A stretch of 64,000 bases of DNA, taken from assembly GCA_003336485.1 (NCBI GenBank), contig QENH01000200.1, positions 7,510 through 71,509 of the forward strand, written 5' to 3'. A program made the translations under genes and the position numbers. A model generated the notes under the pieces. It worked only from the letters and a program-made list of their open reading frames with translations, ran no database searches and was not told the DNA's origin. The DNA is from Candidatus Methanophagales archaeon. GTDB taxonomy: Archaea > Halobacteriota > Syntropharchaeia > Alkanophagales > Methanospirareceae. This document shows, piece after piece, positions 4,649-62,150 of the stretch. Position 1 is the stretch's first letter. Each line of letters opens with the position of its first letter.

Positions 4649-7249
4649 ATGGATAAAATAAGTATAAATATGAAAGGGCTAGAAAAAACATCAATAATCT
4701 ATGGTGTCATATTGGCGCTGATATTCTGTGTTTCGCTTGCTATACGGGGTGTTTTACCATATGCGAGTGTTTTTACTGATACATTCGTCAAATTTGGCGG
4801 GAATGACCCTTGGTATAAGATGCGAGTGGTGGAAAACATGCTGCAGAACTTCCCGCATCGTATTTACTTCGACCCGTTCACATATTATCCTCATGGTACG
4901 CATTTGGGCGTTGGACCGTTATTTGATTACTTGCTTGCGGTTATTATATGGCTAATCGGGCTTGGGAACCCTTTCGCTACTTTAGGTCAGCAGGGAATAG
5001 AAGTAATAGGCGCCTGGTATCCTGCCGTTTTGGGCGCTCTTACTGTTTTACCGGTCTATTTTATAGGAAAAGAATTATGGGGCAGGAATGCCGGCATTCT
5101 CTCCGCAGCCCTAATCGCTATTCTCCCGGGACAGTTCTTATCCCGTTCTCTATTGGGCTTCACAGACCATCACGTTATGGAAACGCTATTCAGTACGATA
5201 GCAATCCTATTCATCATTTTAGCGATAAAGGCGGCGAAGAAGAATGGAATAACATTTCATACCATATTGGAGAAGGATTGGACTTCTTTGAAGAGGCCAA
5301 TGCTTTATTCCTTCTTCGGCGGCATATTCCTCGGAAGTTATTACCTCGCGTGGATGGGTGCCTCACTCCTCATCTTTGTTCTGATTATCTTTGCAGCGGT
5401 GCAGTATGTGCTAGACCATGTAAGAGGCGTAAGCACTGATTATCTTTGCATTATTGCCGTCCCGGTTTTTATTATTTCGTTACTGATGATTGCCCCCGTG
5501 CCATATATTGGCTCTCTAACGGGCATTTCGTTTATTTCGCTTCTCCTTGTAATAGCTGTATTTCTTATTTTGAGTGCTCTTTCAGTTTTGATGGACAGGA
5601 AGAAAATGAACCCTTATGGGTATCCTATTGCGATATTGGCTGTTGCTGTATCATCCATCATCATTTTGAGCGCTTTGAGTCTACCCATATACTCAAAGAT
5701 TATCGGAGCGCTTCATGTCTTTATTCCTTCTGCGTCCAGTTTGACCATAGCTGAAGTTCATCCAATGCATATTATATCACAATATACCGGTAAGTTCACC
5801 GATGGTGAAGCCTGGCGCTGGTTCACCACGCCCTTTTTCGTTGCCTTCGCTGCTTTTCCCTTGATCGGCTATAACATAGCGAAGAAATTCAGGGCAGAAG
5901 AGATGTTGATCCTTGTATGGAGTGTGGTAATGCTGTTTGCATGTTTTGGGCAGAATAGGTTCGCGGCATATTATGCAGTGAACGTTGCTCTTCTCTGTGG
6001 ACTCGTTTCCTGGAAGCTAATTGAGTTTGTATGGCTTAGAGGCGCGGGCGATGCGGTAGAAAAAGCGGGGGTGAAGATAAAGGGGAAGACGAAAGGGGGA
6101 GCAGGTATGGAGAAGGCGAAGCCTAATAAAAAAGTGCATAATGATGAGAAGAGACCGGAAATGGATAAAGTAAAGCGGTATTTACGTCCGGAGCTCATAA
6201 TTACGTGCATCATCATAGGCGTAGTTGTATTTATCCCACCGCTAAATGCTTCTTTAGCAAGTGCGAAATATGGTGGCGGTCCTGCTGACGATTGGTACGA
6301 ATCTCTCTCCTGGATGCGGAATAACACGCCCGATACAGGTGTTGACTATTATGCACACTATGACCGACCACCGATAAATGAAACAACCGGTAGAATAGAG
6401 GATTATAACTATCCGGAATCGGCATATTCGGTAATAAGCTGGTGGGACTATGGACATTGGATTACGCGCATCGCTCGTAGGATTCCCGTTGCCAATCCGT
6501 TCGGGCAGCAGGGCATAGGGGGGCCGTATCGTGGGAACGACCCCGGTGCGTGCCTATTCTTCGTTACAACGAACGTAAGCGAAGCGAACAATGTTGCCGA
6601 TGCGCTTGACGTGAAATATGTAGTGACAGATTTCATGATGGCCGATGCATTCAACGCATTTTATAATAAATTCGGTGCAATGACCGTTTGGTTTGGCGAT
6701 ACAGAAGGATATTACACTCAAGTTGTCACTGATGATGGTCCTCAAATAGGGCCAAGTACAAAGTATTTCAGCACGATGGTGGCACGACTTCACATATTCG
6801 ATGGTCGGGGTGTAGCACTAAGTGAAGAGTTCTATCTGGAGCCGTTACGCCATTACCGGCTTATTCACGAATCGCCCAGTAGCATAATTGTCATGGGTGG
6901 GCAACCGATAAAATATGTTAAGGTCTTCGAATACGTAGAAGGTGCGAAGCTAAAAGGAACCGCACCTATTGGTTCCATAGTGGAAATAGCGACAAATGTG
7001 TCTACAAATACGGGGCGCGAATATATCTATGCCGAGCGAATGATGTCAAATGGCACATACGAGTTCCCCGTGCCGTATTCAACGGCGGGGCCGATAGAAG
7101 GCGGCACGAATTTTGACGTTTTCGCATCGCCATATAAAGTGAGTGTAGGGTATGTAACAAACGCAACGGTGGCATGGACAGAGGCGAAGGAGATTAATGT
7201 GCCGGAAGAGGCAGTAATGGACGGCAAAATGATAACGGTGAATTCGTAA
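4649..7249 (+). CDS. aglB: Archaeal oligosaccharyltransferase AglB (STT3 family)
   Basis: 866 aa with a multi-TM N-terminal half, the STT3 hallmark WWDYG (SWWDYGHWI) and a soluble C-terminal domain. Confidence 0.9.
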   Translation: MDKISINMKGLEKTSIIYGVILALIFCVSLAIRGVLPYASVFTDTFVKFGGNDPWYKMRVVENMLQNFPHRIYFDPFTYYPHGTHLGVGPLFDYLLAVIIWLIGLGNPFATLGQQGIEVIGAWYPAVLGALTVLPVYFIGKELWGRNAGILSAALIAILPGQFLSRSLLGFTDHHVMETLFSTIAILFIILAIKAAKKNGITFHTILEKDWTSLKRPMLYSFFGGIFLGSYYLAWMGASLLIFVLIIFAAVQYVLDHVRGVSTDYLCIIAVPVFIISLLMIAPVPYIGSLTGISFISLLLVIAVFLILSALSVLMDRKKMNPYGYPIAILAVAVSSIIILSALSLPIYSKIIGALHVFIPSASSLTIAEVHPMHIISQYTGKFTDGEAWRWFTTPFFVAFAAFPLIGYNIAKKFRAEEMLILVWSVVMLFACFGQNRFAAYYAVNVALLCGLVSWKLIEFVWLRGAGDAVEKAGVKIKGKTKGGAGMEKAKPNKKVHNDEKRPEMDKVKRYLRPELIITCIIIGVVVFIPPLNASLASAKYGGGPADDWYESLSWMRNNTPDTGVDYYAHYDRPPINETTGRIEDYNYPESAYSVISWWDYGHWITRIARRIPVANPFGQQGIGGPYRGNDPGACLFFVTTNVSEANNVADALDVKYVVTDFMMADAFNAFYNKFGAMTVWFGDTEGYYTQVVTDDGPQIGPSTKYFSTMVARLHIFDGRGVALSEEFYLEPLRHYRLIHESPSSIIVMGGQPIKYVKVFEYVEGAKLKGTAPIGSIVEIATNVSTNTGREYIYAERMMSNGTYEFPVPYSTAGPIEGGTNFDVFASPYKVSVGYVTNATVAWTEAKEINVPEEAVMDGKMITVNS

Positions 7250-8205: not shown

Positions 8206-8270
8206 TTTTATTATTTCTTTTGGTAAAGCTTTTCTTTCTAAGAAAAGGTTTCCATTAAGTTAAAGAAGAC

Positions 8271-11486: not shown

Positions 11487-11534
11487 CTTGACGAATAGAA
11501 TAATGCAAAAAGATATGAGGTGAAAAAGAAGAAA
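11487..11534 (+). promoter_or_regulatory. Conserved 5' leader/promoter block shared by the three beta-helix paralogs. The other copies are at 14288-14322 and 16057-16107.
   Basis: The block ATGACGAATAGAATAA(A)TG(C/A)AAAAG recurs immediately upstream of each paralog start. Confidence 0.4.
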
Positions 11535-13940
11535 ATGAAAAAACCAATAGCAATTTTATTGATAGCTGCAATATTAACGCTAGGCATAGCTACAAGTGCA
11601 CTGCCATTCTCATTCTCAACTTGCGCAACTACAAATAACCAAGGATCTCCACTACTGGCAACAGCCATGCCAGCACTAGCACAAGGTAGCAATGGCACTC
11701 CTAGCGAAGGCGACGCCAGTAGTATGGAAATTCCCCCGAATGCTGAGGAAAATGAGATAACAACGGGCAAGGAGTACTTAAACACCATACAAATGGACGG
11801 TTCTTCATCAGCTCTTTCACATGATGATACAAAGCTTCCATACAACTCTTCGGGTAACAGACAAAAAGGCAGAGATATGCATACATTAGGGAAAATACCG
11901 AGTGAATCGGAACAGCCAGTAGAAGTATCAAAACCACCATTGAAAGGATCTAAACAGCCAGTAAAAGTATCGAAACCGCCAATTAAAGAATCCAAACAAC
12001 AATTAGTACATAATATAAACACAGGCGAGGACTTCACCACGATCCAAGCAGCAATAGATGATCCTGATACATTGGATGGACATACGATTACGGTTGATCC
12101 GGGAACGTATACGGAGAATGTAGCTGTTTACAAGTCTTTAACTATACACTCAACCACAGGTAATCCATTAGATACGATTGTTCAGACGAATTCTGATGAC
12201 CATGTCGTTAATGTATCTGCGGATTATGTGAACATAAAGGGGTTTACGGTGTCGGTGATAGATGATTGGATGAAGGCGGGAATATATCTCGGAAGCGGAG
12301 TGGATCACTGCACCCTCTCTGATAATAATATGACAGATACTTGGTGGGGCATCTATCTAGATCATTCCAACCACAACTATCTCTCTAACAATAACGCCTG
12401 GTATAACGAGTATGGCATCTCTCTGGATTATTCCAGCAACAACTGTCTCTCTAACAATAACGCCTGGTATAATAACGAGTATGGCATAGGTCTATCTCAT
12501 TCCAGCAACAACTGTCTCTCTAACAATAATATCTCGGATTTTAACTTTTATAGCATCTACCTATTGGAATCTAGCAACAACTCCATCTCTAACAATAATC
12601 TCTGGAATAACGAGGATGGCATATACCTATCTTATTCCAGCGACAACTATATTTCTAACAATAATGGTTGGGCTAACAATGGTTATTTCATTAGGCTGTC
12701 GCATTCCAGCAACAACCATATTTCTAACAATAATGCATGGTCAAACTTCTTGGGTGGTATCCGTTTGTCACATTCCAGCAACAACACGATCTCCAACATT
12801 AATACTTCGAACAACGATTTCTTTGGCATTTGTCTATCTGATTCCGACAACAACGGTCTCTATAACAATAATGTCTCGAACAACGGGGATTATGGTATCT
12901 GCCTCTCTTCCTCGAGTAGCAACACCATCTACAACAACTACTTCAACAACACGAACAACGCCTATGATGATGGAACCAACATCTGGAACATCTCAAAAGA
13001 AAATGGACCAAATATCATTGGTGGTGACTATCTTGGTGGGAACTATTGGAGCGATTACACGGGCATAGATGAAGATGGCGATGGACTTGGAGATACTTTG
13101 CTACCATACAACTCTTCTGGTGAGATCCAAAATGGCGGTGATTTGCGGCCATTAGTTACAGCGTGTTTTACACCGCCGGAGATCACTTCTTCCGCCCCTC
13201 TTTCTCCGGTTAACGATACAATATGCACATGGCGGACATTTAACGTTACGGTAGATCAGACGGTGAACGTGCGCTGGTATTTGAACGATATGTTATTATT
13301 CACGAACCTAAGTGTGCGAAAAGCCGATTGCACACTCCATGCAGAGGTTGTGGGAGAACACAACGTAACAGCAAATGCATCGAATGCAAATGGCTCTGAT
13401 CTGCAGACCTGGATCTGGAATGTGACTGGTTTTACTGCGGAGCCGCCTGAAATAACATACTATGCCCCCAAATCGCCGGTTAACGATACCCGAAATGCAA
13501 CAAGGACATTCAACATCACAATCAATCAATCAGTAAATGTTAGTTGGCAGATAAACGGCACGACAGTTCAGGCCAATGAGGGTCTAACCGAAGCATCATA
13601 CACGAATACAAGTGCGGTCATTGGGACCTGGAACGTTTCTGTGATTGTAAGCAATGCAAATGGGACCGACATGCAGACGTGGATATGGACTGTAACATCA
13701 CCATGTTTCATAGCAACAGCAGCATATGGGACGCCATTGCACGGAGATATAGACGTTTTGAGAGATTTCCGAGACGAATATCTGATGTCGAATCCAACCG
13801 GGAGAGCATTTGTAAAAGTTTATTATAATGCAAGTCCCCCAATTGCTGATTGGATAAGGGCGAATGAAGGATTGGGAACTGCTGTACGGGAAGGTTTTGT
13901 TAAACCATTAGTGTATGTTACGAGGATGTTTGTAGGCTGA
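11535..13940 (+). CDS. Secreted right-handed parallel beta-helix (PbH1/NosD-like) repeat surface protein, paralog 1
   Basis: Signal peptide [22 protein letters not shown] (ORF-track start at 11520 adds a K-rich extension). Sequence features in order:
- K/P-rich 11-aa repeats ([11 protein letters not shown]);
- ~22-aa PbH1 repeats (GIxLxxSSNNxxSNNN);
- NosD-like tail [28 protein letters not shown];
- two ~90-aa Ig-like repeats;
- a conserved C-terminal CFIATAAYG domain. Confidence 0.8.
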
Positions 13941-14322
13941 GCGGGGATATTTTGAACTGAATTCTGTCATCGCGATAACACGTCCCAAAGTTGGCTCTTC
14001 GTCCGTCCAGAACTCCCACATATCTTCATCACACGCCGAGTCATATATTCGCGGTGAATTCTCAGTATTGTCTGTCTCACCCTTATCCCGGTCATTGGTG
14101 AGCCAAGCAGTAGAGGAGAGCAACAATAATTTTTGAAGGGTGTATAGCGCGGTTTATTTCGATTATTCAGCCCTGCTTGTGGAGTCGAAAGAGGTTTCTA
14201 CTTTTGGAGTTATAAGGTCACAACTTGTTTATACGTTATCAACACACCAAAATAACACCTGTTCATTCTACCGAGGGTGTTTTATATCAACATGACGAAT
14301 AGAATAAATGAAAAGGAAAAAA

Positions 14323-15876
14323 ATGAAAAACCCAATAGCAATTTTATTGATAACTGCAATATTAACGCTAGCCATAGCTACAAGTGCACTGCCATTCTCG
14401 GCTTGCGCAACTACAAATAACCAAGATTCTTTGATACGGGCAACAGCCATGCCAGCACTAGCACAAGATAGTAAGGATACTCCCTGCGAAGACAACGCCA
14501 ATAGTATGGGATTTGCCCCGAACGCTGAGGAAAATGAGATAACAACGGGCAAGGAGGGCTTAGACACCATACAAATGGACGGGTCTTCATCAGCTCTTTC
14601 GCATGGCGATACAAAGCTACCATACAACTCTTCTGGCAACATAAAAAATGGCGGAGATCTGCATACATTAGAGAAAAAATCGAGTGGATCGAAACCGCCA
14701 GTGAAAGTATCGAAACAGCCGGTGAAAATATCGAAACCACCCGTGAAAGTATCTAAACTACTTTTAGTTCATAATAGGGACACCGGCAAGAACTTTGCTA
14801 CGATACAGGCTGCGATTGATGATTCTGATACCGTAGATGGGCATACGATTATGGTTGATCCAGGAACGTATACGGAAAATATAGTTGTTTACAAGTCTCT
14901 AACGATCAGATCAACCACAGGTAATCCGGCGGATACGATTGTCCCGGCTGCGGATTATAGAGCTCATGTCTTTAATGTGACCGCGGATTATGTGACTATA
15001 CGCGGGTTTACGGTATCGGGGGCAAATGATTATGATACACTGCCGGCCGGAATATATCTGGGAAACGGAGTGGATCACTGCAACATCTTAGATAATAATC
15101 TAATTGACAATTGGAGGGGCATCGATATATACTATTCCAACAACAACGGTCTCTCTAACAATAACGCCTGGTATAACGAGTATGGCATCGGTCTATCTCA
15201 TTCTAGCAACAACTGTCTCTCTAACAATAATATCTCGAATTTTAACCATTATAGCATCTACCTATTGGAATCTAGCAACAACTCCATCTCTAACAATAAT
15301 CTCTGGGATAACGAGTATGGCATATATCTGTCTTATTCCAGCAACAACTATATTTCTAACATTAATGGTTGGGCTAACAATTGTCATCTCATTACGCTGT
15401 CACATTCCTGCAACAACCATATTTCTAACATTAATGCATGGTTAAACTTCTATGGGGGTATCAGTTTGTCACATTCCAGCAACAACTCTATCTCAAACAT
15501 TAATACTTCGAACAACGATTTCTTTGGCCTCTATCTATCGGATTCCGACAACAACTGTCTCTATAACAATATTGTCTCGAACAACGGGGATTATGGTATC
15601 TACCTCTCTTCTTCTAGTAGCAACACCATCTACAACAACTATTTTGACAACACGAACAATGCTTGGGATGACGGAAGCAACATCTGGAACATCACGCCGA
15701 CCTTAGGCGAGAATATCATTGGCGGTTGCTTGCAGGGAGGTAATTATTGGAGCGATTACACGGGCATAGATGAAGATGGTGATGGACATGGAGATACAAT
15801 GCTACCATACAACTCTCCTGGTGAGATACAAAATGGCGGCGATTTGCGACCATTGGTACCTAGAACGTTTTTATGA
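14323..15876 (+). CDS. Secreted beta-helix repeat surface protein, paralog 2 (lacks the C-terminal domain)
   Basis: It has the same signal peptide and N-terminal region as paralogs 1 and 3, PbH1 repeats and the NosD-like tail, but ends at ...GDLRPLVPRTFL with no Ig-like or CFIATAAYG domain. Confidence 0.7.
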   Translation: MKNPIAILLITAILTLAIATSALPFSACATTNNQDSLIRATAMPALAQDSKDTPCEDNANSMGFAPNAEENEITTGKEGLDTIQMDGSSSALSHGDTKLPYNSSGNIKNGGDLHTLEKKSSGSKPPVKVSKQPVKISKPPVKVSKLLLVHNRDTGKNFATIQAAIDDSDTVDGHTIMVDPGTYTENIVVYKSLTIRSTTGNPADTIVPAADYRAHVFNVTADYVTIRGFTVSGANDYDTLPAGIYLGNGVDHCNILDNNLIDNWRGIDIYYSNNNGLSNNNAWYNEYGIGLSHSSNNCLSNNNISNFNHYSIYLLESSNNSISNNNLWDNEYGIYLSYSSNNYISNINGWANNCHLITLSHSCNNHISNINAWLNFYGGISLSHSSNNSISNINTSNNDFFGLYLSDSDNNCLYNNIVSNNGDYGIYLSSSSSNTIYNNYFDNTNNAWDDGSNIWNITPTLGENIIGGCLQGGNYWSDYTGIDEDGDGHGDTMLPYNSPGEIQNGGDLRPLVPRTFL

Positions 15877-16107
15877 TTGTACGCAATGTTTTGGCTGCAC
15901 AATGAGATTTTTTTATATATATATCAAGCCAAAATGTTCTAGCAAGCAGGTAGCGGCATTTTCCACTTGAAGAGTAAAAAACCCCTATCGTACCCATTTT
16001 ATGAGTCCCTAACACCTATGAATATGACATATTCACCCAACCTATGTCTTTTTATGCAGATATGATGAATAGAACAAATGCAAAAGTATGATGTGGAAAA
16101 GATAAAA

Positions 16108-19100
16108 ATGAAAACCCCAATAGCAATATTATTAATAGCCGCAATATTAACGCTAGCCATAGCTACAAGTGCACTCTCATTCTCGGCTTGCGCAACTACA
16201 AATAACCAAGAATCTTCGACATTGGCAACAGCCATGCCAGCACTAGCACAAGGTAGCAATGGTACCCCTAACGAAGACGACACCAGTAGTAGGGGATTTA
16301 CCCCGGATGCTGTGGCATGTGTCTTAACAAAGGACGTGGTGGCCTTTGATACCGTACAAATGGACGGTTTTGCATCTGCCCTTTCGCATGAAGATACAAC
16401 GCTTCCATACAACTCTTCGGGTAACAGACAAAAAGGCAGAGATATGCATACATCAGGGAAAATACCGAGTGAATCGGAACAGCCAGTAGAAGTATCAAAA
16501 CCACCATTGAAAGGATCTAAACAGCCAGTAAAAGTATCGAAACCGCCAATGAAAGAATCCAAACAACAATTAGTACATAATATAGACACAGGCGAGAACT
16601 TCACCACGATACAAGCTGCGATTGGTGATCCTGATACCGAGAATGGGCATACGATTACGGCTGATCCGGGAACGTATACGGAGAATGTAGTTGTTTACAA
16701 GTCTTTAACTATTCGCTCAACCACAGGAAATCCAGCAGATACGATTGTTCAGGCGGCGGATTCCTATGATCATGTCGTTAATGTGACTGCGGATTCTGTG
16801 ACTATAAGCGGGTTTACGGTGTCGGCGATAGATGGATATGCTGCAGGGATATATCTTGGAAGCGGAGTGGATCACTGCAATATCTCTGATAATAATGTAA
16901 CTGTCACTTATGGGTCGGGTATATATCTAGATTGTTCTAGCAACAACCTTATCTCTAACAATAATGCCTGTGGTAACGGGCCATCTGGCATCGAGCTGTC
17001 TCATTCCAACACCAATACTATCGTTAACAATACTGCAGACTATAATGACGAATATGGAATCCATCTGGATTATTCCAGCAACAACTTCATCTCTAACAAT
17101 AATGCCAGCGGGAATAACGGGCATGGCATCTATCTATCTCATTCCAACAACAACTCTCTTTCTAGCAATAATGTCTCGCAGTGTTGGTATGGCATCTATC
17201 TATCTCATTCCAACAACAACTCTCTTTCTAACAGTAATGTTTGGGGATTCGATGATGATGGCATCAGTCTATATTATTCTAGCAACAATTCGCTCTATAA
17301 CAATAACGTCTGGCTTAGCAGTGGTACGGGCATCCGTCTGTCATCTTCCAGCCACAACTCGCTCTCTAACAATAATGTCTTTAGTAACCTTGCTTTTGGC
17401 ATCGCGCTATATGGATCCAGCAACAACTCTCTTTCTACTAATACCCTAGAAAATAACGATTATGGCATCGAGCTGTCTCATTCCACCTGCAACTCGCTCT
17501 ATAACAATAATGTCTTGAAGAATGATGAGCATGGCATCCACCTCTCTTCTTCAGATAGCAACCTCATCTACAACAACATTTTCAACAACACGAACAACGC
17601 CTATGATGATGGAAGCAACATCTGGAACATCACAAAAGAATATACCCCAAACGGGAACATCATTGGCGGTCCTTACTTAGGGGGGAACAATTGGAGCGAT
17701 TACATGGGCATAGATAAAGATGGCGATGGACTTGGAGATACTTTGATGCCATACAACTCTTCGGGCGACATCCAAAACGGCGGCGATTTGCGGCCATTAG
17801 TGGAACCATCTGAACTACCAGTACATAATACAAACACAGGCGAGAACTTCGCCACGATACAAGCTGCGATTGATGATCCTGATACCGTGAATGGGCATAC
17901 GATTACGGCTGATCCGGGAACGTATATAGAGAATGTAGTTGTTTACAAGTCTTTAACTATGCACTCAACCTCAGGAAATCCATCAGATACGATTGTTCAG
18001 GCGGCGGATTCCTATGATCATGTCGTTAATGTGACTGCGGATTATGTGACTATACGCGGGTTTACGGTGTCGGGGGCATCATATGGATGGGATATAGCGG
18101 GAATATATCTTGGAAGCGGAGTGGATCATTGCACCATCTCTGATAATAATATAACTGACAATGGGTGGGGCATCTATCTGGATCATTCCAGCCACAACCA
18201 TCTCTATAACAATAATGTCCGGGGTAACGTCGGCGTTAATGGCGGCGGAATCAGGCTGTCATATTCCGGCGGCAACACTCTCTCTAACAATAACGTCTTG
18301 AACAACGAGGATGATGGCATCTGGCTATATCATTCCAACAACAACACTCTCTCTAACATTAATGCATCGCATAACTACTTTGGCATCATTCTGTCACATT
18401 GCAGCAACAACTCGCTCTTTAATATTGATGCTTCTAACGCATTCGCAAGCATATGGCTCTCTCAATCCAGCAACAACTCGCTCTTTAACATTAATGCCCG
18501 CCACAGCTCTGGTGACGCCGGCATTGTGCTGTTTCAATCCAGCAACAACTCGCTCTCTAACATTAATGCATCGGATGTCATGGGTTATCCTGGCATACAC
18601 CTCTCATCTTCCAGCAACAACTCGCTCTTTAACATTAATGCCTTTAACAACTTTTTAGGCATCGAGCTGTCAGATTCCAGCAACAACACTCTCTATAACA
18701 ATAATGTCTCGAATAACTATCTGTGGGGCATCGAGCTGTCACATTCCTCCTGCAACTCGCTCTATAACAATAATGTCTCGAACAATTATGATCTTGGCAT
18801 CCGCCTCTCTTCTTCAAACAATAACCGCATCTACAACAACATTTTCAACAACACGAACAACGCCTATGATGATGGAACAAACATCTGGAACATCACAAAA
18901 GAATATACGCCAAACGGGAACATCATTGGCGGTACTTACTTAGGGGGGAACAATTGGAGCGATTACATGGGCATAGATGAAGATGGCGATGGACTTGGAG
19001 ATACTTTGCTGCCATACAACTCTTCGGGCGACATCAAAAATGGCGGCGATTTGCGGCCTTTAGTGGAACCATCTGAACTACCAGTACATAATATAGACAC

Positions 19101-20616
19101 AGGCGAGAACTTCGCCACGATACAAGCTGCGATTGATGATCCTGATACCGTGAATTGGCATACGATTACGGCTGATCCGGGAACGTATACGGAGAATGTA
19201 GTTGTTTACAAGTCTTTAACTATTCGCTCGACCACAGGAAATCCATCAGATACGATTGTTCAGGCGGCGGATTCCTATGATCATGTCGTTAATGTGACTG
19301 CGGATTCTGTGACTATAAGCGGGTTTACGGTGTCGGGGGCACCAAGTTGGGATAGTGCAGGGATATATCTTGGAAGCGGAGTGGATCTTTGCACCATCTC
19401 TGATAATAATATAACTGACAATGGGAGGGGCATCTATCTGGATCATTCTAGCCACAACACTCTCTCTAACAATAATGCCCTGAAGAACTTTTGGTGTGGC
19501 ATCTATCTAGATTATTCCAGCAACAACAAGCTCCTCAACAATACTATCTTTCGAGGCGATTATGGCATCTATCTGGATTATTCCAGCAACAACTTCCTCT
19601 ATAACAATACTGTCGATTGGAGCGGTATGGAAGGCATAATTATGTCACATTGCAGCAACAATTCGCTCTTTAACAATAATGCCTGGGGTGTCAATGGTCC
19701 AGGCATCCATCTATCTTCTTCCAGCAACAACAACAATCTCTCAAACAATAATGCCTGGCATAACCTTGATGGTATCATTCTGTCACATTGCAGCAACAAC
19801 TCGCTCTTTAACAATAACGCCTGGTATAACGAGTATGGCATAGGTCTATATCATACCAACAACAACACTCTCTCAAACATTAATGCATCGCATAACGACT
19901 TTGGCATCTATCTGTATCATTGCAGCAGCAACTCGCTCTTTAACAATAACGCCTTTAACAACTATTTTGGCATCGAGCTGTCACATTCCAGCAACAACTC
20001 TATCTCAAACATTAATACATCGAACAACGATTTCTTTGGCATCTATCTATCTGATTCCGACAACAACTGTCTCTATAACAATATTGTCTTGAAGAATGAT
20101 GAGCATGGCATCCACCTCTCTTCTTCAGATAGCAACCTCATCTACAACAACATTTTCAACAACACGAACAACGCCTATGATGATGGAAGCAACATCTGGA
20201 ACAGCACAAACACCACGGGACCGAACATCATTGGTGGACCTTATATTGGCGGTAACTATTGGTCTGATTATGCAGGTATTGATTCGAATCATGATGGTTT
20301 TGGCGATACGCCTTATAATATACCGCCAGGCGGCATTAGCAAAGATTATTTACCGCTGGTTCCTGTTGAACCATCACCATGTTTCATAGCAACAGCAGCA
20401 TATGGTACGCCATTGCACGATGATATAGACGTTTTGAGAGATTTCCGAGACGAATATCTGATGATGAATCCAACAGGGAGAACATTTGTAAAAGTTTATT
20501 ATACATTGAGTCCACCGGTTGCGGATTTGATAAGGGGAAATGAAGGACTGGGAACTGCTGTACGGGAGGGTTTTGTTAAACCCTTAGTGTATGTTACGAG
20601 GATGTTTGTAGGCTGA
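16108..20616 (+). CDS. Giant secreted beta-helix repeat surface protein, paralog 3 (three tandem NosD-like modules)
   Basis: The same signal peptide is followed by three ~420-aa modules, each starting [22 protein letters not shown] and ending ...[13 protein letters not shown], then the C-terminal CFIATAAYG domain. The ORF-track start at 16078 is an upstream in-frame ATG. Confidence 0.8.
16576..20345 (+). repeat. Three tandem ~1.25 kb coding modules inside paralog 3. They start near 16576, 17824 and 19087, with a period of about 1248-1263 bp.
   Basis: Read directly from the sequence. Module ends are about 95% identical at nucleotide level (for example 17650-17822 vs 18900-19083), while interiors differ in PbH1 repeat content. 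Confidence 0.85.
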
Positions 20617-20636
20617 GCGGGGATATTTTATTCCAT

Positions 20637-21221
20637 TTATGTGAAAAACTTCTCGTTCAGAATCTCAATCGCATCCTTCTCTCTACGCCCGCCGCATTTT
20701 TCGACTATGTCCGCATAATGTACCATCTCTTTTTTTAGCTCTTCCTGTTCTCGTTCATCCCTGGTCATTTTATACCGCGTTGCGAGTATAGTAGCTTCAA
20801 TCACCGCATTAAGCCCCCTATTTATCGCTTTTAGCTCATTCCAATTGATTTTCACTGCTATGGGCGTCAATTGAAAGATGGAATATACACCGCTCTTCTC
20901 TTCTAAAACCGCCCGGAATATTATCCCCGATTGCGCTTCTTTTAGTACCGGAAATCCGGAAAGAGCTGAATAATGCGATTTGTCCAACTTCTCAAATGCC
21001 GCTTTCACGAATAAGACCGCGTCACAGGTTACATTCGCGGCTAATTTGTCCGTTTCCGTCACGTTAGAAAGGGTTCTTGAACCTTTGTATAGTTTCACAA
21101 AATGCCCGTTTGTTGTTGTTATTATACCAATAGGGGCAGCATTGAACGTGCCCACAGCGGATCTCGAGGTAACTATTACTTCTGATATGCCCTCGTCTAT
21201 GCCAGCTTCTCTTATGTTCAT
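20637..21221 (-). CDS. DUF447-like protein (predicted flavin-binding split barrel)
   Basis: 194 aa. It resembles methanogen DUF447 proteins, but the family assignment comes from memory and is not computed. Confidence 0.4.
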   Translation of the reverse strand: MNIREAGIDEGISEVIVTSRSAVGTFNAAPIGIITTTNGHFVKLYKGSRTLSNVTETDKLAANVTCDAVLFVKAAFEKLDKSHYSALSGFPVLKEAQSGIIFRAVLEEKSGVYSIFQLTPIAVKINWNELKAINRGLNAVIEATILATRYKMTRDEREQEELKKEMVHYADIVEKCGGRREKDAIEILNEKFFT

Positions 21222-30107: not shown

Positions 30108-30644
30108 TTATCTAGCATTTTTACTCACACGCTCAACAGCCACCTTTATCATCGCCACTATGCCCTTCTCGTTCCATCGCGAGGAATCGATTACCAGATC
30201 ATAAATGGTAAGATCGTCCAAGAGTATACCGTAATATTGCTCATATCGCTTATGTTCGGACCGTTCTCGGTCTCTCATTGCAGAAAGAGCATCAATGTAG
30301 GCGACACCTTCGCGACTACCAATTCGTCTCGCTCTTATTTCCGAGGGTGCTTTCAACCATATCTTCAAATCTGCTTTGGGGACAAAGAATCCGGCCAGTC
30401 GGCTTTCTATAATGACATTGTCACGCTTCATCGCCTCCTTGCCCTGCAGCTCATCTATCTGCCTATCGAACTCATCGTTATCTTCTGCTAATTTGTTAAA
30501 ATGCGCCAATTGCAATTTCTTAGCATTCGCTATTTGCCGGAACATTTCGCCCGCAGAGATTAGCTCCATCTCAAATTCACGCGATAGCAAATTCGCAACT
30601 GTTGTTGTTCCACTGCCTGGAAGACCGCTTATTGTTAGTCGCAT
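30108..30644 (-). CDS. cmk: Archaeal cytidylate kinase
   Basis: P-loop ISGLPGSGTTTVANLL. The 178-aa length is typical of archaeal Cmk. Confidence 0.75.
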   Translation of the reverse strand: MRLTISGLPGSGTTTVANLLSREFEMELISAGEMFRQIANAKKLQLAHFNKLAEDNDEFDRQIDELQGKEAMKRDNVIIESRLAGFFVPKADLKIWLKAPSEIRARRIGSREGVAYIDALSAMRDRERSEHKRYEQYYGILLDDLTIYDLVIDSSRWNEKGIVAMIKVAVERVSKNAR

Positions 30645-30700
30645 AAAACATTCTTTAAAAGAAAGTTTTATTAAAGGAATAGTTTTTCAATAATTTTTGG

Positions 30701-30812
30701 TAATCGGACGCAGATGAACGCAGATAATCAGGATTTTAAATATAAGGTTTAATTGACGGAGGAGATTATTAGAATCATTGAGGAACTAGTTTTCTGCGTA
30801 AATCCGCGTCCT
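30701..30812. repeat. Intergenic element with inverted termini, ~110 nt, copy 1. Copy 2 is at 49547-49660.
   Basis: The shared core is AATCGGACGCAGATAAT...GATTTT(A/T)AAT...GACGGAGGAGATTATTAGA. In copy 1 the termini GGACGCAG and CTGCGT..GCGTCC are reverse complements. Confidence 0.5.
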
Positions 30813-39366: not shown

Positions 39367-40503
39367 CTACCTTTTTCGTCCTACCAGATATGCTACTGCT
39401 AATAGCCCTGCAATAGCGAATACCATTTCAAACCCTATTGTTTCCCTTGGACTAGGTGTGGCCATTGTCCTGGTTGTCGCAGGTGTAGAAATTAGATCCA
39501 CTTTAACAGGAAGCATTATGCTTTTATATTCCGCAGTTGACTTATCTCCTCCAAAATAATAACAAATATCGCTCTCAACATTGAACACACCAACTTGATT
39601 CGTTTTTATGCCCACCCCGATATGTCTTTCCTTTCCCGGTTCTACGGTATAATTAGCTGTATACATACCTGCTCCAGATTCTATAAATTCTATGGATGTA
39701 ATGCTCATTCCTGATGGGACTTTTAGTATCAGTTGCAAAGTCATCGTTGGCTTTGTTATTAGATTGACCGCAGAAAGAGATAATAGAATATCTTCTCCAA
39801 CAGTGACATCTGTCTTTTCTCCATGGAGATAAACACTTGGTTCTCCGGGTTTGGGAGTTGGTGGCGGGGTCTCAGTTGGTGTTTCTGTTGGCATAGAAGT
39901 GTATGTTGATGCCTGTGTGGACGTAGTTATTGTTGGAGTTGGTATGTAGGAGGGGGTAGGTGTTATAAATGGCGTGGGACTCGGTGCTTGTAAGTGGAAA
40001 GGAGTAATAGTAGGTAAATGTTTTGGTGAAGGAGTTATAGCAGGAGTTGGACTTGGTGAAGGTGTTGGTGAAAGTATTGGTGAAGGTGTTATGGTAGGAG
40101 TTGGACTTAGTGTGGGTGTTGGTGAAGGTGTTGGCGAAGGTGTTGGCGAAGGTGTCAATACCTTATAACTCACGGAGATAGTTTTTGTAGCGGTATCACC
40201 AGCATTATCAGTTGCTTCCACTTTTATTATATTGGTGTTGGGGTTTAACGAAATGGTTTTACTCCAGAAAGATGTGCCTGATGCAAGCTCTCCGTTGACC
40301 AGGACACCCTCAATTACTGCTCCCGGAGAAGTGGGGAATGCTGTACCAGAAACCGTTATGGTACCCGTAATCACTTCTGCCTCATCTTCAGGTGTAGCTA
40401 TTTCCAACAAAGGAGCACTTGCAAGCACGGATGTCAAAGAATATATAAGTAAGAAAATGCTGATAGGTACTATAATGAAACCCCTCAAACCTATCCTTTT
40501 CAT
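39367..40503 (-). CDS. PGF-CTERM-anchored surface protein with a Pro/Thr/Ser-rich linker
   Basis: - Start placed at [19 protein letters not shown] (signal/TM).
- Long TPSPTPSP linker.
- C-terminal [23 protein letters not shown], a PGF-CTERM archaeosortase A sorting signal. Confidence 0.7.
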
Positions 40504-40513
40504 GCCAACCTCT

Positions 40514-42811
40514 TTACTGTTCCAATCTAACAATTGGTATCCAAGTATTATAAACTATTATGCTTAGATATGTTTCGGGACCCGTATCAAATTCACTTTC
40601 TGTTGCAACAATAGTAACTTCCCTTGGCTTTGCGATATTTCCTTCTTCATCATTGGCATGTATTATAAAAGTATATCTACCCTCCTTCTTCGGAACAAAG
40701 CTCACCATATACCTATTTCCTACCTCTTCTTTTAACTCCAATGTGGTCAAGTTTATTTCATACATTGTATCATTGCTTATCTGGTCTATGGCAAAATCAG
40801 GTTCAATCAGGGTTACATATACACGCTCTACCTTCAAATCATCTACTACTACCGCCCATATCTCTATTTCTTCACCCACCATCACAGTCTGATTATCAAT
40901 TGAATCTAAGATAGTTGGAGGGAAATCAAGGGCTCCGAATTGGGATCCTATGTATGTTGACGATGACAAAGAGCCATCTCCAGGATATACTGGTGCGGGA
41001 TGCCCAATTCCATCACCATTGTCATCCAACAACGAAATTTGAGGCGATAATCCTACTTTATCGAGCGTATCAGAATATGCTTTTATCTCAGGCACATTTG
41101 ATGTTTCTTCAAAAGCTTCTTTTATGTTCTTCCCTTTTGCTATCGAGTTGAAGAAATATTTTGAGAATGTAGCGCCTGTTTGCTCTATCAACGAATTCGC
41201 TTTTGCGCCCGTTGATGTTACAATTATCCTGCCAGCCGTTGAAAGATTACAAATGAAACTGCCAGAACTACACGATTCTATCACCACCGTTATCTTATAG
41301 CATCCCGTATCAGCGGACAATTCATCCAGATTAGAATCCAACTCCGAAGAACTCAATGTCTCTCCAAGTCCTTTTAACAGAAGCATATCTTCTTTTCCAT
41401 GACCTATTATGTAAATGAACAATGGGACCTCGGTGCCTACTTTCCCCTCTGCCCATGTGTTTATCGCATACGAAATATTTTCCTTTGATGTTTGCATGTC
41501 TACTCTCTCAAAGTTCATGGGACTGAGATAAAATAGCCTTTCATCAGTGAAGCCGCGCTTCAAGAGTGTGTCATAAGTCATGTTTGCTGTCAGGTCAATG
41601 TAATTCTGCGATAGCCATTCGTCGTTTCTGCCAACGATTATAATTGCATATCCTACTTCAATACGGTATTGTTTTACGGTAAAACACATAGTTTCGCTCT
41701 TTATCGCTTTCCCTCCGATAACACAAGAGGCATTTACGTTCCATTCTCCGACCTCATTTGGCGGAAAAGTAATGGCGTAGGAGCCGCTTAATGTGGTCAT
41801 TACAGGCTGCTCTGCAATTTCACCTGTGGGCGATTTGAATATCATGGTTACTATTGTGCTGGATGCAGGAACTATTTCTCCAGAAACCGTTACGCTTTCT
41901 GATCTGTTCAACATAGCAGGACTTACTGAGATTGTGATATGTGTTGGTGGGGTTGGAGTGGGAGTTGGATATTCGTAAGTTGTGGGGGATGCAACAGGTG
42001 TTGGCGTTTGCTGAGCTGAGGGTGAAGGCGTTAATGTTTGAGAAGGTGAAGGTTCTGGAGTGGGAACCGCTCCTCTTGCCTCCTTCTTATCCACTATAAA
42101 ACCAAAAGCAATACCGCTACCATCAGTTTCGAGCTTAATCTTTAACGTGTCCCCAGTGAACCATTCCGTCCACATATCCGCTTCACTTAAAGGGCCCCAA
42201 CTGTATCCATATGTTGCAAGTTCATTCTTGTCTATATCGAGTATCCGCACATAATCATCTTCCAAGAGTTCTATCTTGGTAAAATGAATCCTCATTTCAG
42301 CTACTCCCGGTTCCGAGATGGTCCAGATGTTTTCATAGTTGTTTGCATACGGATGATAGGTTTCTGCTAAATATGAGGATGTTGGTGCTGATTCTGTCCG
42401 CCTTTCCACTTCATCCACTATAAAACCAAAAGCAATACCGCTACCATCAGTTTCGAGCTTAATCTTTAACGTGTCCCCAGTGAACCATTCCGTCCACATA
42501 TCCGCTTCACTTAAAGGGCCCCAACTGTATCCATATGTTGCAAGTTCATTCTTGTCTATATCGAGTATCCGCACATAATCATCTTCCAAGAGTTCTATCT
42601 TGGTAAAATGAATCCTCATTTCAGCTACTCCCGGTTCCGAGATGGTCCAGATGTTTTCATAGTTGTTTGCATACGGATGATAGGATTCTGCTAAATACGA
42701 AGCTGAAACAGTTTGGATTCCGAGTGGGAAGATTCCGATTGACAAGACACATATCAAAAGGATACTACCTAAAAATATGCCGAGCTTCATGATTTTGCCC
42801 TTTCTCTTCAT
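40514..42811 (-). CDS. Secreted legumain/C13-like cysteine peptidase with two tandem CUB-like domains
   Basis: - Signal peptide.
- Two ~130-aa near-identical CUB-like domains ([18 protein letters not shown]...YVRILD...).
- Peptidase core with His in IIGHG and Cys in VIESCSSG, the C13/caspase-like dyad arrangement. Confidence 0.55.
42091..42694 (-). repeat. Near-perfect tandem duplication of the CUB-like domain coding segment (2 copies of ~324 bp)
   Basis: Read directly from the sequence: 42091-42370 and 42415-42694 are nearly identical. Confidence 0.85.
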
Positions 42812-46333: not shown

Positions 46334-46374
46334 AAACCTTTTCTTAGAATGAAAAGCTTTACCAAAAGAAACAG
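46334..46374. promoter_or_regulatory. ~40-nt quasi-palindromic intergenic motif, copy B. Copy A is at 8217-8254 (inverted) and copy C at 54774-54812.
   Basis: Consensus: AACCTTTTCTTAGAA(A/T)GAAAAGCTTTACCAAAAGAAACA. All three copies lie in divergent promoter regions. Confidence 0.5.
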
Positions 46375-49493: not shown

Positions 49494-49546
49494 TTCCTTT
49501 TATTCTATTTCTCTTTGATTGCTTATATTTGATTTTTTGTATTTGA

Positions 49547-49660
49547 TAATCGGACGCAGATAATATGATTTTTAATATTTTTGATGGTTTATTAGACGGA
49601 GGAGATTATTAGACTCTTCTATCATCTCGTGGAAATCTGTGTAATCTCGTGGCGTATAAA
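49547..49660. repeat. Intergenic element, copy 2 (see 30701-30812)
   Basis: It shares the core AATCGGACGCAGATAAT...GACGGAGGAGATTATTAGA with copy 1. Confidence 0.5.
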
Positions 49661-49730
49661 AAAGGAGCTAAACAAATACAAGTTAAAGTATAAATATTAA
49701 TCACTGGCTAATGTGGGAGAGCGAAAGAAG

Positions 49731-54006: not shown

Positions 54007-54300
54007 ATGGAGAACAAGGATAAAGAGCGGGATAAAAAAAGGGCAGAATATGAGGAAGGCTTAAAAAAGACGTTGATACCACTCGCATTTGGTATTCTTG
54101 CAGGTGCCTTATCCTTTATTTTGATAAAAGATCCCGTATCAACGGATGGTTTGATTATTGCAATCATAATGATATTTGTGCAGAAGTTTGTCTATCAGTT
54201 CTTGCATATACCCATGGAAGGTGCAAAAGACTGGATTTATCTCGCTTTTATGACTCTTTTCTGCTGGTTCGTCGCTTATACATTAATGTTGAATCTGTAG
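54007..54300 (+). CDS. Small membrane protein
   Basis: 97 aa with a charged N-terminus followed by two or three TM helices. Confidence 0.4.
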   Translation: MENKDKERDKKRAEYEEGLKKTLIPLAFGILAGALSFILIKDPVSTDGLIIAIIMIFVQKFVYQFLHIPMEGAKDWIYLAFMTLFCWFVAYTLMLNL

Positions 54301-54771
54301 ATCGGAATTCAGAATAATGTGGGTAGCTGCGATAGCGAGGGCATCAGTGACATCGTCGGGCTTTGGCATTTCCGCTAATTTGAGCTTCTCGACTACACTG
54401 GTGGCGACTTCGCTCTTCGTTGCCCTGCCATATCCGGTTATAATGCTCTTTACCTCGGATGTGTTATAGTCATATGCCGGTATGTCTGAGATCGCAGCAG
54501 TTAAGAGACAAACCCCTCGTGCCTGTCCAACACTTAACGCTGTCTTCACGTTTGTATTGAAGAAAATCATCTCTATTGCCATAACATCTGGCGTAACGTC
54601 CTTTATCACGGCGAGCAGATCATAATAGATCTTCTTTAATCGCTCTCCATTCGATTGCGCGGGTGTTGTCTTTACATAACCAAAATCAATTGGTTTTAAT
54701 CGTCCGTTGTTTAACTCGACAACACCCCATCCAGTGCGAGCAGTTCCTGGGTCTATTCCTATCACACGCAT
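54283..54771 (-). CDS. ruvC: Crossover junction endodeoxyribonuclease RuvC (bacterial-type Holliday junction resolvase)
   Basis: RVIGIDPGTARTGWGVV, AIEMIFF, LSVGQARGV, TGYGRATKSEV and DDVTDALAIAATH are colinear with E. coli RuvC motifs, including the catalytic D/E/D/D positions. Confidence 0.7.
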   Translation of the reverse strand: MRVIGIDPGTARTGWGVVELNNGRLKPIDFGYVKTTPAQSNGERLKKIYYDLLAVIKDVTPDVMAIEMIFFNTNVKTALSVGQARGVCLLTAAISDIPAYDYNTSEVKSIITGYGRATKSEVATSVVEKLKLAEMPKPDDVTDALAIAATHIILNSDLQIQH

Positions 54772-54803
54772 AAAAAAACCTTTCTTTCAAAAAGAAAGCT
54801 TTA

Positions 54804-54878
54804 CCAAAGAAACAATATACCTTAGGTAAGATAACCTTCTTCCAAAGAAACAATATACCTTAGGTAAGATAACCTTTC
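54804..54878. repeat. Two tandem copies of a 38-nt unit (CCAAAGAAACAATATACCTTAGGTAAGATAACCTTTCT)
   Basis: Read directly from the sequence. It lies immediately 3' of motif copy C, in the ruvC/csl4 divergent region. Confidence 0.8.
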
Positions 54879-54973
54879 TTTCAAAAAGTTTTAAAACATT
54901 TAGCAAAGAAATATTAATTATACTTAGTATAAAGTAAATTGTTAAGGGGGAGTGAAAAGAAGGAAAGGAAGTA

Positions 54974-61533: not shown

Positions 61534-62150
61534 TTAGCCCCCTATAACTTTCCAATGCCCGCCTTTATCTGGGCCAACTCTTATAAGTTTACCCTCTTGT
61601 TGCAAGTTTTGGATGTTTCTTTCGATTGAACGTGTGGTTACGCCAATTATTTCTGCAAGTTCCGGTATCGTTATCCAGTCATTTGATTTAATTGCCTCCA
61701 CTATTTTCACCGACGTTTTCACCGACGTTTCTTCCGGAACAATATAGTTACTTAGCTTAAACTCAAGATAAAAACCGGAGAAATCATACTTGAATTCAGG
61801 TACGGGCAAACCAGCTCTCTTGCATTCACTGTTAATTTTCTGAATGCCTCGCCCCCCATGCTTCAATTAAGCCTGCACGGAAAAATGCATTCGCAATATC
61901 GGGATTATACGGTTTGGAGGGGTGTTTTTGTTTTAGCGTTTCAATTGTCCAGTTTTCAGGTAATTGACCATCGTTCCATAAAACTATTTTATCATCATAA
62001 ACGCTTATTTGGATGGGGACGCCGTTGCTATAATCTTTGTGTACAACGGCATTTAACAGGGCTTCACGCAAAGCCGGTCTGGGAAACGGGTATTTTTCAA
62101 TTCTGGTCAGATCGTCATAACTTATATTCGCCCTCATGTATTTGGTAAGC
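61534..62150 (-). pseudogene. Transcriptional-regulator-like ATPase gene (HATPase_c_4 core plus C-terminal wHTH; AlbA_2/Schlafen-like family), 5'-truncated and frameshifted
   Basis: Two overlapping ORFs (61832-62230 and 61534-61866) carry the HATPase_c_4-like core (LLNAVVHKDYSNGVPIQISVYDDKIVLWNDG) and the wHTH tail. The frameshift is near the C-run at ~61855-61861. Homology stops at ~62150, where sequence identical to the beta-helix repeat begins. Confidence 0.6.

Follow-up and report, generated by a model that had tools for sequence, protein, structure and literature searches.

A motif of approximately 40 nt recurs in the 64,000-nt stretch of archaeal DNA analyzed here (the window), close to the start codons of ftr, S19e, and ruvC. 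A sequence-only reading had proposed that it could be a shared transcription-factor operator, a bidirectional promoter cassette, or a small mobile or ncRNA element. The question raised by the locus is which of these it is. We conclude that the motif is probably one module, named A and found as types I and II, of a non-coding, structure-defined family of interspersed repeats of approximately 40 nt in ANME-1/Methanophagales and neighboring archaea, comparable to REP/BIME, MITE, and BoxC elements, and not a common operator.

Copies in the window and their anatomy

The three sites are all present (Table 1), with zero expected by chance, and the genes assigned to their surroundings (FTR, NTPase_1, S19e, GatB, RuvC, and Csl4) are correctly labeled. 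Compared with a 39-nt consensus, copy 1 (8212–8250, minus strand) has one mismatch and copy 2 (46335–46373, plus strand) has none. Copy 3 is a sequence subtype with 82% identity over 33 nt, in which the 14-nt AAAGCTTTACCAAA core is identical. A profile made from relatives recovered exactly three full copies in the window, together with a half copy and a decayed fourth copy. The sequence is A/T-rich and made of homopurine and homopyrimidine runs, so a chance or low-complexity likeness of A/T-rich spacers has to be considered. It is hardly conceivable, however: dinucleotide-preserving shuffles gave no matches to the 39-nt consensus, and an identical block of 33–40 nt is shared by more than 120 unrelated loci whose flanks are random.

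Each copy consists of AAACC, a 7-nt pyrimidine arm, a 3-nt loop, a 7-nt purine arm, the 8-nt GCTTTACC, a second 7-nt purine segment, and C or T. The arms are predicted to form a hairpin of −5 to −12 kcal mol−1 with z about −3 (ViennaRNA, modeling the hairpin only and not a third strand), which AAACC and GCTTT lengthen around a conserved C·C mismatch. The AAAGCTTT that had been taken for a central palindrome is in fact the 3′ foot of this 12-3-12 hairpin, AAACCTTTTCTT-nnn-AAGAAAAGCTTT. In copy 2 the hairpin has one arm mismatch, at position 46350. Conservation begins abruptly 2–3 nt before AAACC and fades past the last purine segment, and the flanks are random.

The copies lie 6, 45, and 4 nt from the starts of ftr, S19e, and ruvC. 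The claim that each sits 3–50 nt upstream of a minus-strand start therefore stands for distance; the common orientation does not, as site 1 runs in the opposite direction to sites 2 and 3. The spacer from the ftr ATG (8205) to the NTPase GTG (8271) is 65 nt long, and copy 1 takes up 42 nt of it. Copy 2 is separated by 45 nt from the S19e ATG (46288) and by 102 nt from the gatB ATG (46476), and is followed by decayed sister modules to about 46440. Copy 3, which is 4 nt from the ruvC ATG (54771), opens a three-unit tandem array; the third unit decays into a TATA-like ATTATACTTAGTATAAAG approximately 40 nt ahead of the csl4 ATG (54974). The decayed fourth copy adjoins the start of a cytidylate-kinase-like gene (30108–30644, minus strand).

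Table 1. Module A copies and their parts in the window, followed by the sister modules.
Feature	Position	Strand	Sequence or remark
Copy 1, type I	8212..8253	−	Hairpin −9 to −12 kcal mol−1, z about −3 (predicted)
Copy 1, minus-strand reading		−	(gg)AAACC-TTTTCTT-AGA-AAGAAAA-GCTTTACC-AAAAGAA-ATA
Copy 1, Hoogsteen-type segment H	8215..8221	+	TTCTTTT; parallel complement of purine arm 8240–8246
Copy 1, 8-nt linker	8222..8229	+	GGTAAAGC (GCTTTACC on opposite strand)
Copy 1, hairpin	8230..8246	+	TTTTCTT 8230–8236, loop TCT, AAGAAAA 8240–8246
Copy 1, GGTTT	8247–8251	+	Directly after purine arm
Copy 2, type I	46334..46373	+	AAACC 46334–38, TTTTCTT 46339–45, AGA, ATGAAAA 46349–55
Copy 2, distal half		+	GCTTTACC 46356–63, mirror segment AAAAGAA 46364–70
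Copy 3, type II	54776..54813	+	AAACC 54776–80, TTTCTTT 54781–87, CAA, AAAGAAA 54791–97
Copy 3, distal half		+	GCTTTACC 54798–805, mirror segment AAAGAAA 54806–12
Three-unit tandem array, remainder	54814..54934	+	Unit = element + 19-nt tail AATATACCTTAGGTAAGAT
Array unit 2	54834–54870	+	Without hairpin
Array unit 3	54871–54888	+	Coordinates of its opening half copy, AACCTTTCTTTCAAAAAG
Decayed fourth copy	30645..30679	+	AAAACATTCTTTAAAAGAAAGTTTTATTAAAGGAA
Module B			TTTTTCTTTT-AGCACAGG-TTTTCTTTTT...AAAAAGAAAA; mirror rule, 8-nt linker
Module C			TCTTTCTT-AGCACAGG-TTCTTTCT; mirror layout, 8-nt linker
Module F			TCTTTTC-CG[TA]AAACG-CTTTTCT; mirror layout, 8-nt linker
Sister module			CTCTTTT-AGTCAAGG-TTTTCTC; mirror layout, 8-nt linker
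Sister module			TCTCTTT-CGCGCACG-TTTCTCT; mirror layout, 8-nt linker

The window holds other repeats as well. At 11500–20650 and 62100–63700 a cluster of at least five paralogous genes is made of tandem 66–69-nt (22–23-residue) coding repeats, suggestive of beta-helix-type repeat proteins. Between these paralogues, 300-nt blocks are 82–94% identical, and the copies at 62148–62447 and 63378–63677 are 100% identical over 300 nt. A tandem duplication of 293 nt (42089–42381 and 42413–42705) is 99% identical, and a tract at 39938–40153 repeats a GGTGAAGGTGTT-type unit with a 12-nt period. The RuvC encoded beside copy 3 (54283–54771, minus strand) is a full-length bacterial-type resolvase (PF02075, E = 3e-40) in an archaeal, ANME-1-like context.

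Distribution and gene context

The species scan covered one genome per species with the pattern AAACCTTT-N11-AAAGCTTTACCAAA, a core that specifies 22 bases. The exact core was found in at least 117 stretches, at least 127 copies, and at least 46 assemblies. Almost all of the matches listed come from ANME-1/Methanophagales, under various labels and with several copies per MAG. The remaining listed matches belong to Syntrophoarchaeum, to Methanolliviera, to three long DPANN contigs (GC 0.38), and to a few small contigs whose binning is probably wrong. Viral contigs searched for module A or B gave no matches. The Rfam 15 covariance models returned only tRNAs for the window and eight composite-bearing loci, even at E≤1. 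No description of the element was found in the literature under its sequence, under repeats or MITEs of ANME-1, or under ANME-1 casposons.

The gene context of the 127 listed copies was taken from crude ORF calls. Seventy-five of these copies are intergenic: 21 lie between convergent, 15 between divergent, and 39 between tandem genes, shares that match the background intergenic spacer length. In the tandem spacers both orientations are about equally common (21:18), and the distance from the core to the next start codon ranges from 0 to more than 1000 nt. The neighboring genes are unrelated housekeeping genes. When 673 flanking ORFs were clustered, only housekeeping families emerged and no recurrent transposase was found beside the copies.

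At least ten copies, in at least nine genes, are internal and in frame. The host genes include purL (two genomes), pheA (prephenate dehydratase), ubiD, a CDP-alcohol phosphatidyltransferase, an AAA/DUF4143 ATPase, and an NAD-epimerase (two paralogues). Translation of these copies gives KPFFRKESFTKE or NLSLKKKALPKK, and alignment to the solved structures of PurL (3viu) and prephenate dehydratase (3mwb) shows the peptide as an insertion. In all well-supported internal copies the AAACC strand is the sense strand. Antisense copies inside ORFs were only apparent and turned out to be artefacts of 5′ ORF extension. One copy lies within the canonical 37/38 intron of a tRNA-Ser on a DPANN contig.

These contexts bear directly on the regulatory proposals. 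Co-regulation of ftr, S19e/gatB, and ruvC/csl4 by a portable bidirectional promoter, or by an operator or upstream activating site of a dimeric factor, would be in keeping with the position of the three window copies, all in divergent spacers and 4–45 nt from a start codon. The 12-3-12 palindrome also resembles a dimer binding site, and the S19e copy (45 nt upstream) stands just upstream of a conserved TATA-like box and is kept in four lineages. A TATA-like tail (ATATnATAC-TTTATATACA) is present on about a dozen type II copies and is followed by a gene start after 20–60 nt, and the csl4-proximal array ends in such a tail. We nevertheless regard this role as improbable. Across at least 46 assemblies the multi-copy element shows no preference for a start codon or an orientation, it occurs between convergent gene ends at the background rate (21 of the 75 listed intergenic copies), and it is found in frame within enzymes and in a tRNA intron. 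The ftr spacer of a close relative works without it. The half-sites of the hairpin covary, and so does the third mirror segment, which no dimeric dsDNA binder explains. As a general function, neither the shared operator nor the bidirectional promoter cassette agrees with this distribution, and a core promoter (BRE/TATA) is at odds with the two orientations, the variable start distances, and the convergent and coding locations. Copies inside coding sequence and the lack of positional bias are also what the sequence-only reading had named as speaking against a regulator.

A local, secondary promoter role is possible for the type II subfamily with the TATA-like tail, including the array before csl4. 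We also considered TTTACCAA as the TATA box of leaderless mRNAs and rejected it as inconsistent; the distance from TTTA to ATG is 32 nt in loci L030 and L034, 16–40 nt elsewhere, and 22 nt at ftr. As a separate observation, an ATAC-TTTATATACA-type box recurs (L007, 1790–1910; L118, 1470–1500; several type II copies) 20–30 nt before a tRNA gene, and is probably the real BRE/TATA of the lineage. In L118 it lies 18–21 nt before the ftr ATG, too close for the canonical archaeal TATA-to-start distance if that ATG is used.

The third option of the sequence-only reading, a small mobile element, is supported by the multi-copy spread, the copies in genes, and an orthologous spacer from which the element is absent. 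It is likely that the motif is a non-autonomous, structure-recognized interspersed repeat and that the three window copies are bystanders in promoter-bearing spacers. They would be separate residents that happen to lie in divergent spacers, and any effects on ftr, S19e, ruvC, and csl4 would be incidental or secondarily co-opted. When ANME-1 genomes are annotated, a conserved 40-mer that precedes several genes is likely to mark this repeat and not the binding site of a regulator. Real enzymes gain 13–20 residues from the repeat, and ORFs are artificially lengthened by it.

Layout and covariation of the three segments

The third segment of the element reverses the purine arm without complementing it. 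Read on the opposite strand, the order is H (TTCTTTT), the 8-nt linker GGTAAAGC, Y (TTTTCTT), the loop, and R (AAGAAAA). H complements R in parallel, the arrangement expected of a pyrimidine-motif third strand. The general layout of a module on one strand is H, an 8-nt linker, Y (the mirror of H), a 2–5-nt loop, and R, which is complementary to Y. The element has the three homopurine/homopyrimidine blocks, in compatible order and polarity and with short loops, of a triplex-type repeat. Among the 127 listed copies, type I has TTTTCTT/AAGAAAA/AAAAGAA and type II has TTTCTTT/AAAGAAA/AAAGAAA; mixed forms are almost absent.

An unbiased scan looked for a 7-nt asymmetric pyrimidine tract, its mirror d nt further on, and the reverse complement within 12 nt. 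It gave 113 matches at d=8, from 14 H/linker/Y combinations, and 0 at d=7 or 9. Where d is even and above 8, the matches come from longer arms in shifted register. With a direct repeat in place of the mirror, the scan gave three matches at d=8.

The sister modules follow the same layout (Table 1). Mosaics combine module A with iteron-like units and modules B, C, D, E, and F, and A and B are oppositely oriented in them. Modules are also nested: the B linker can take up A or a GC-rich hairpin after AGCAC, and other modules sit in the B loop. Iteron-like CAC-RAGATTW-CAC units often bracket A+B. The window has such units without a full A copy. In the radical-SAM<>PRPP-synthetase spacer (49540–49680) there is an iteron-type palindrome without module A, which reads GTATTTGTTTAGCTCC...CCACGAGATTACACAGATTTCCACGAG on the minus strand with GGACGCAGATAAT on the far side, and a tandem GGACGCAGATGAACGCAGATAATC (30703–30726) lies beside the decayed A copy. 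Units like these bracket A+B composites in many ANME-1 loci. In L048 (about 6700–6790) and in both copies of L033, a GC-rich double hairpin (TGTGGGGCTCYGCCCCACGACCC...CCCTGTAAGGGYTT) sits exactly after AGCAC in the B linker, where it parts the Hoogsteen from the Watson–Crick tract and gives an ENE-like topology. This double hairpin may be a separate small repeat family.

Covariation was assessed over 49 distinct A-family rows. Pairing in the hairpin reaches 97.1%, and four of its pairs have changed on both sides. Complementarity of the parallel H/R columns is 94.9%, and 4/4 tested columns changed on both sides; these counts reflect a few subfamilies that spread as units, with about 5–6 discriminating families and few independent events. 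None of 500 shuffles reached the H/R value, and slid registers gave 51–76%. An independent metagenome variant (L124) has R=AAAGAG and GAGAAA as its third segment. A metagenome scan for stems other than the main ones gave only two matches. The third-strand rule is broken in variant L125 and in several decayed copies. We also considered the third segment as a shifted direct repeat, that is, as an alternative pairing partner. This was rejected, as type I, L124, and the CG[TA]AAACG and AGTCAAGG families fit the mirror rule only; families B and C are compatible with both the mirror and the direct repeat.

To our knowledge, no dsDNA-binding dimer and no replication mechanism produces mirror repeats. 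The simplest explanation of the pattern may be selection for a triplex-compatible fold of a single strand. In such a fold, Y and R would pair as a hairpin and H would lie in its major groove, forming T·A-T and C+·G-C triples (class IV pyrimidine motif). The complementary strand has the class II purine-motif layout. The folded single strand, either DNA during mobilization or RNA, may be what a trans-acting factor recognizes, and we propose that the three segments covary for this reason. On the comparative evidence, we lean towards the triplex-capable fold of a single strand as the selected feature.

The same fold could act in RNA. An element with a hairpin of U·A-U and C+·G-C triples, ENE/MALAT1-like in principle, might be kept by selection as a 3′-end protector, an aid to termination, or a processing signal. 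The pyrimidine-motif order H-linker-Y-loop-R is the one able to form in RNA (PMC4666352), and the cytosines of H are always isolated. The GC-rich hairpin fits into the linker and leaves H and Y undisturbed (L048, L033). Composites in which A and B are oppositely oriented are often found between convergent genes, where each transcript would meet one RNA-competent module; this and the sense-strand bias in genes hint at RNA. The well-supported coding insertions all put the non-RNA-competent orientation into the mRNA, but the hydrophilic peptide of the sense frames explains this bias equally well. Orthologous copies are more conserved than neighboring synonymous sites (purL of L016 compared with L107, 1/33 vs 8/40 differences). 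The tandem spacers, however, show no orientation bias to the flanking genes (21:18), which speaks against a function in RNA. The Rfam families, among them the ENE models, gave no match, and the oligo-T tracts would terminate archaeal transcription before the fold is complete. We consider this RNA-level role unlikely. The ncRNA option could hold only in the sense that the fold forms in transcripts.

Turnover, putative mobility, and likeness to known systems

Orthologous spacers indicate how copies come and go. No exact-protein record was found for the Ftr and S19e of the window, and relatives were used for comparison. In L119 and L120 (Ftr 89% identical), the syntenic AbpE-NTPase<>ftr-AglB spacer is 61 nt long and the element is absent. 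The same NTPase–ftr spacer in L118 (Ftr 92% identical) holds a different composite of 210 nt, with a stem variant of A between iteron-like units. The S19e–gatB spacer has type I in the window and type II in relatives (L129/L130, L131/L132); the flanks are orthologous, and H, Y, and R all differ together. This switch is most simply a replacement or conversion by another copy rather than point mutation. Other copies persist. The one 45 nt upstream of S19e is present in four lineages and truncated in one, the ruvC-proximal copy is common to the window and L044, and the purL insertion is common to L016 and L107. That these copies are nearly unchanged across lineages could point to function rather than selfishness.

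Flanking direct repeats of 11–23 nt abut AAACC in 8 of the 127 listed copies, and controls gave 0/416 at 11 nt or longer. Examples are 23 nt of a tRNA-Ala 3′ end (L021), 15 nt (L055), and 16–17 nt where A lies within the module B linker. The distal end varies raggedly, as type I tails follow the A-spacer-B composite for anything from 0 to more than 53 nt. Integration may proceed by staggered or target-primed insertion, to judge from the sharp AAACC end, the ragged opposite end, and the 11–23-nt direct repeats at the copies that look youngest. The sharp end, the ragged end, and the long variable duplications together resemble target-primed insertion. A tiny hairpin-defined unit placed next to ...AC also resembles single-strand transposition of the REP/RAYT or IS200/IS605 type. 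Casposase/Cas1-type integration, considered because of the 15–23-nt duplications and the tRNA 3′-end target, is only a possibility; no terminal inverted repeats and no Cas1 link were found at the element. Mobility is inferred from the pattern only, with no transposase or recurrent gene beside the listed copies and no match in viral contigs. The variable lengths and the lack of flanking duplications at most copies count against a mobile repeat.

In one extension of the mobile-repeat reading, the modules would be the 3′ ends of non-autonomous, SINE-like retroposed archaeal RNAs. Their terminus would be an intramolecular U·A-U/C+·G-C triple helix that stabilizes the RNA, serves as a handle for a reverse transcriptase, or both. 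Traits that would fit a SINE-like origin are the sharp GGTTT/AAACC end, the ragged other end, and the 11–23-nt repeats, in a small sample in which most copies lack repeats and no reverse transcriptase is linked. We hold this to be a long shot. If true, it would explain the precise ...R-GGTTT end, the ragged opposite end, the 11–23-nt duplications, the tRNA-gene insertions, and the spread into DPANN, and the terminus would be a prokaryotic counterpart of ENE-type elements.

DPANN contigs (Nanobdellati/Parvarchaeota) of 34–239 kb bear the same modules (L021, 3817–3980; L055, 6700–6800; L074, 5950–6060). In L021 the 3′ end of tRNA-Ala is duplicated over 23 nt on either side of an A+B insertion, and a module that forms a type by itself (linker CGCGCACG) lies alongside. 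The insertion in L055 lies between a 15-nt duplication, and in L074 module A is within the intron of tRNA-Ser(GGA). This suggests a shared mobilizing agent, or gene flow, between ANME-1 and co-resident DPANN. The element would mark insertion and turnover in uncultured methane-oxidizing archaea.

BoxC, PIT, and TM_ECO of Enterobacteria are reportedly intrastrand-triplex repeats, as described by Hoyne and Maher in 2000 and 2002. The closest kinds to the ANME element appear to be these (PMC4666352) and the repeats of Methanomicrobiaceae (PMC8044849); REP/BIME mosaics and the in-frame insertions of Rickettsia palindromic elements (RPE) are also close. Like BoxC/PIT/TM_ECO (Holder et al. 2015, PMC4666352) and the rPQS repeats (PMC8044849), the ANME elements are short, conserved, multi-copy, and mostly intergenic, with three blocks (pyrimidine, purine, purine) and short loops. 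As in both of these, one strand has a class II purine-motif and the complement a pyrimidine-motif layout, the loci are variable, and there is no tie to the orientation or function of neighboring genes. The ANME elements differ in being A/T-rich (T·A-T with isolated C+·G-C) and not G/C-rich, and in their 8-nt linker of conserved sequence, nested mosaics, and in-frame and tRNA-intron copies. TM_ECO (PMC4666352) and the rPQS and C-tract repeats, of the G-rich hairpin/triplex type (PMC8044849), were probed in vitro, whereas the ANME triplex is predicted here from sequence. The bacterial BoxC/PIT motifs are single sequences, whereas in ANME there are several families with three covarying blocks. 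Several families under a parallel-complement rule with a fixed 8-nt linker would be unusually clean comparative evidence for an intrastrand triple helix selected in vivo in a prokaryote; the BoxC/PIT case, by contrast, rests on in-vitro work with a single sequence.

REP/BIME elements are mobilized by RAYT (IS200/IS605-like Y1 transposases), and REPs are usually species-specific. The ANME element shares with them the imperfect palindrome of 35–40 nt (20–40 nt is typical of the class, and the 12-3-12 hairpin qualifies), the high copy number, and the occurrence as single units or in mosaics of alternating orientation. Both are defined by a hairpin rather than by terminal inverted repeats, and the mobilizing gene is not adjacent; no RAYT was found among the 673 neighboring ORFs. 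Unlike REP/BIME, the ANME head is (cAc)AAACC and not GT[AG]G, the sequence is common across an order-level clade and beyond, and there is a third mirror segment and copies in coding sequence. As with RPE and gene-inserting MITEs, a palindromic selfish repeat survives in essential genes as an in-frame hydrophilic peptide, and two open reading frames run through the ANME element. RPE is longer (100–150 bp); the ANME element is about 40 nt and asymmetric, with flanking repeats variable or absent. It resembles MITEs in being multi-copy, non-coding, and shorter than 200 bp (at least 117 stretches, at least 46 assemblies, about 40 nt). A MITE is bounded by terminal inverted repeats, and its target duplication has a fixed length and derives from a known IS family, whereas the ANME element is asymmetric (a hairpin and a 3′ extension), its flanking repeats are variable or absent, and no parent IS was found.

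In ENE/MALAT1, as in the fold proposed here, two antiparallel U-rich strands clamp an A-rich strand, a single C+·G-C triple sets the register, and there is room for a stem-loop between the U-rich pair. ENEs come from eukaryotes or viruses and target an A-rich tail at the 3′ end; in the ANME element, known from its DNA and lacking an Rfam match, the purine strand is joined to the Watson–Crick pyrimidine strand by a 3-nt loop. The ordinary idea of a promoter motif is largely refuted by the gene context of the copies. The ANME family differs from the known kinds in its A/T-rich pyrimidine-motif design, its conserved 8-nt linker, its multi-family covariation, its nesting, its copies in genes and a tRNA intron, and its wide taxonomic spread.
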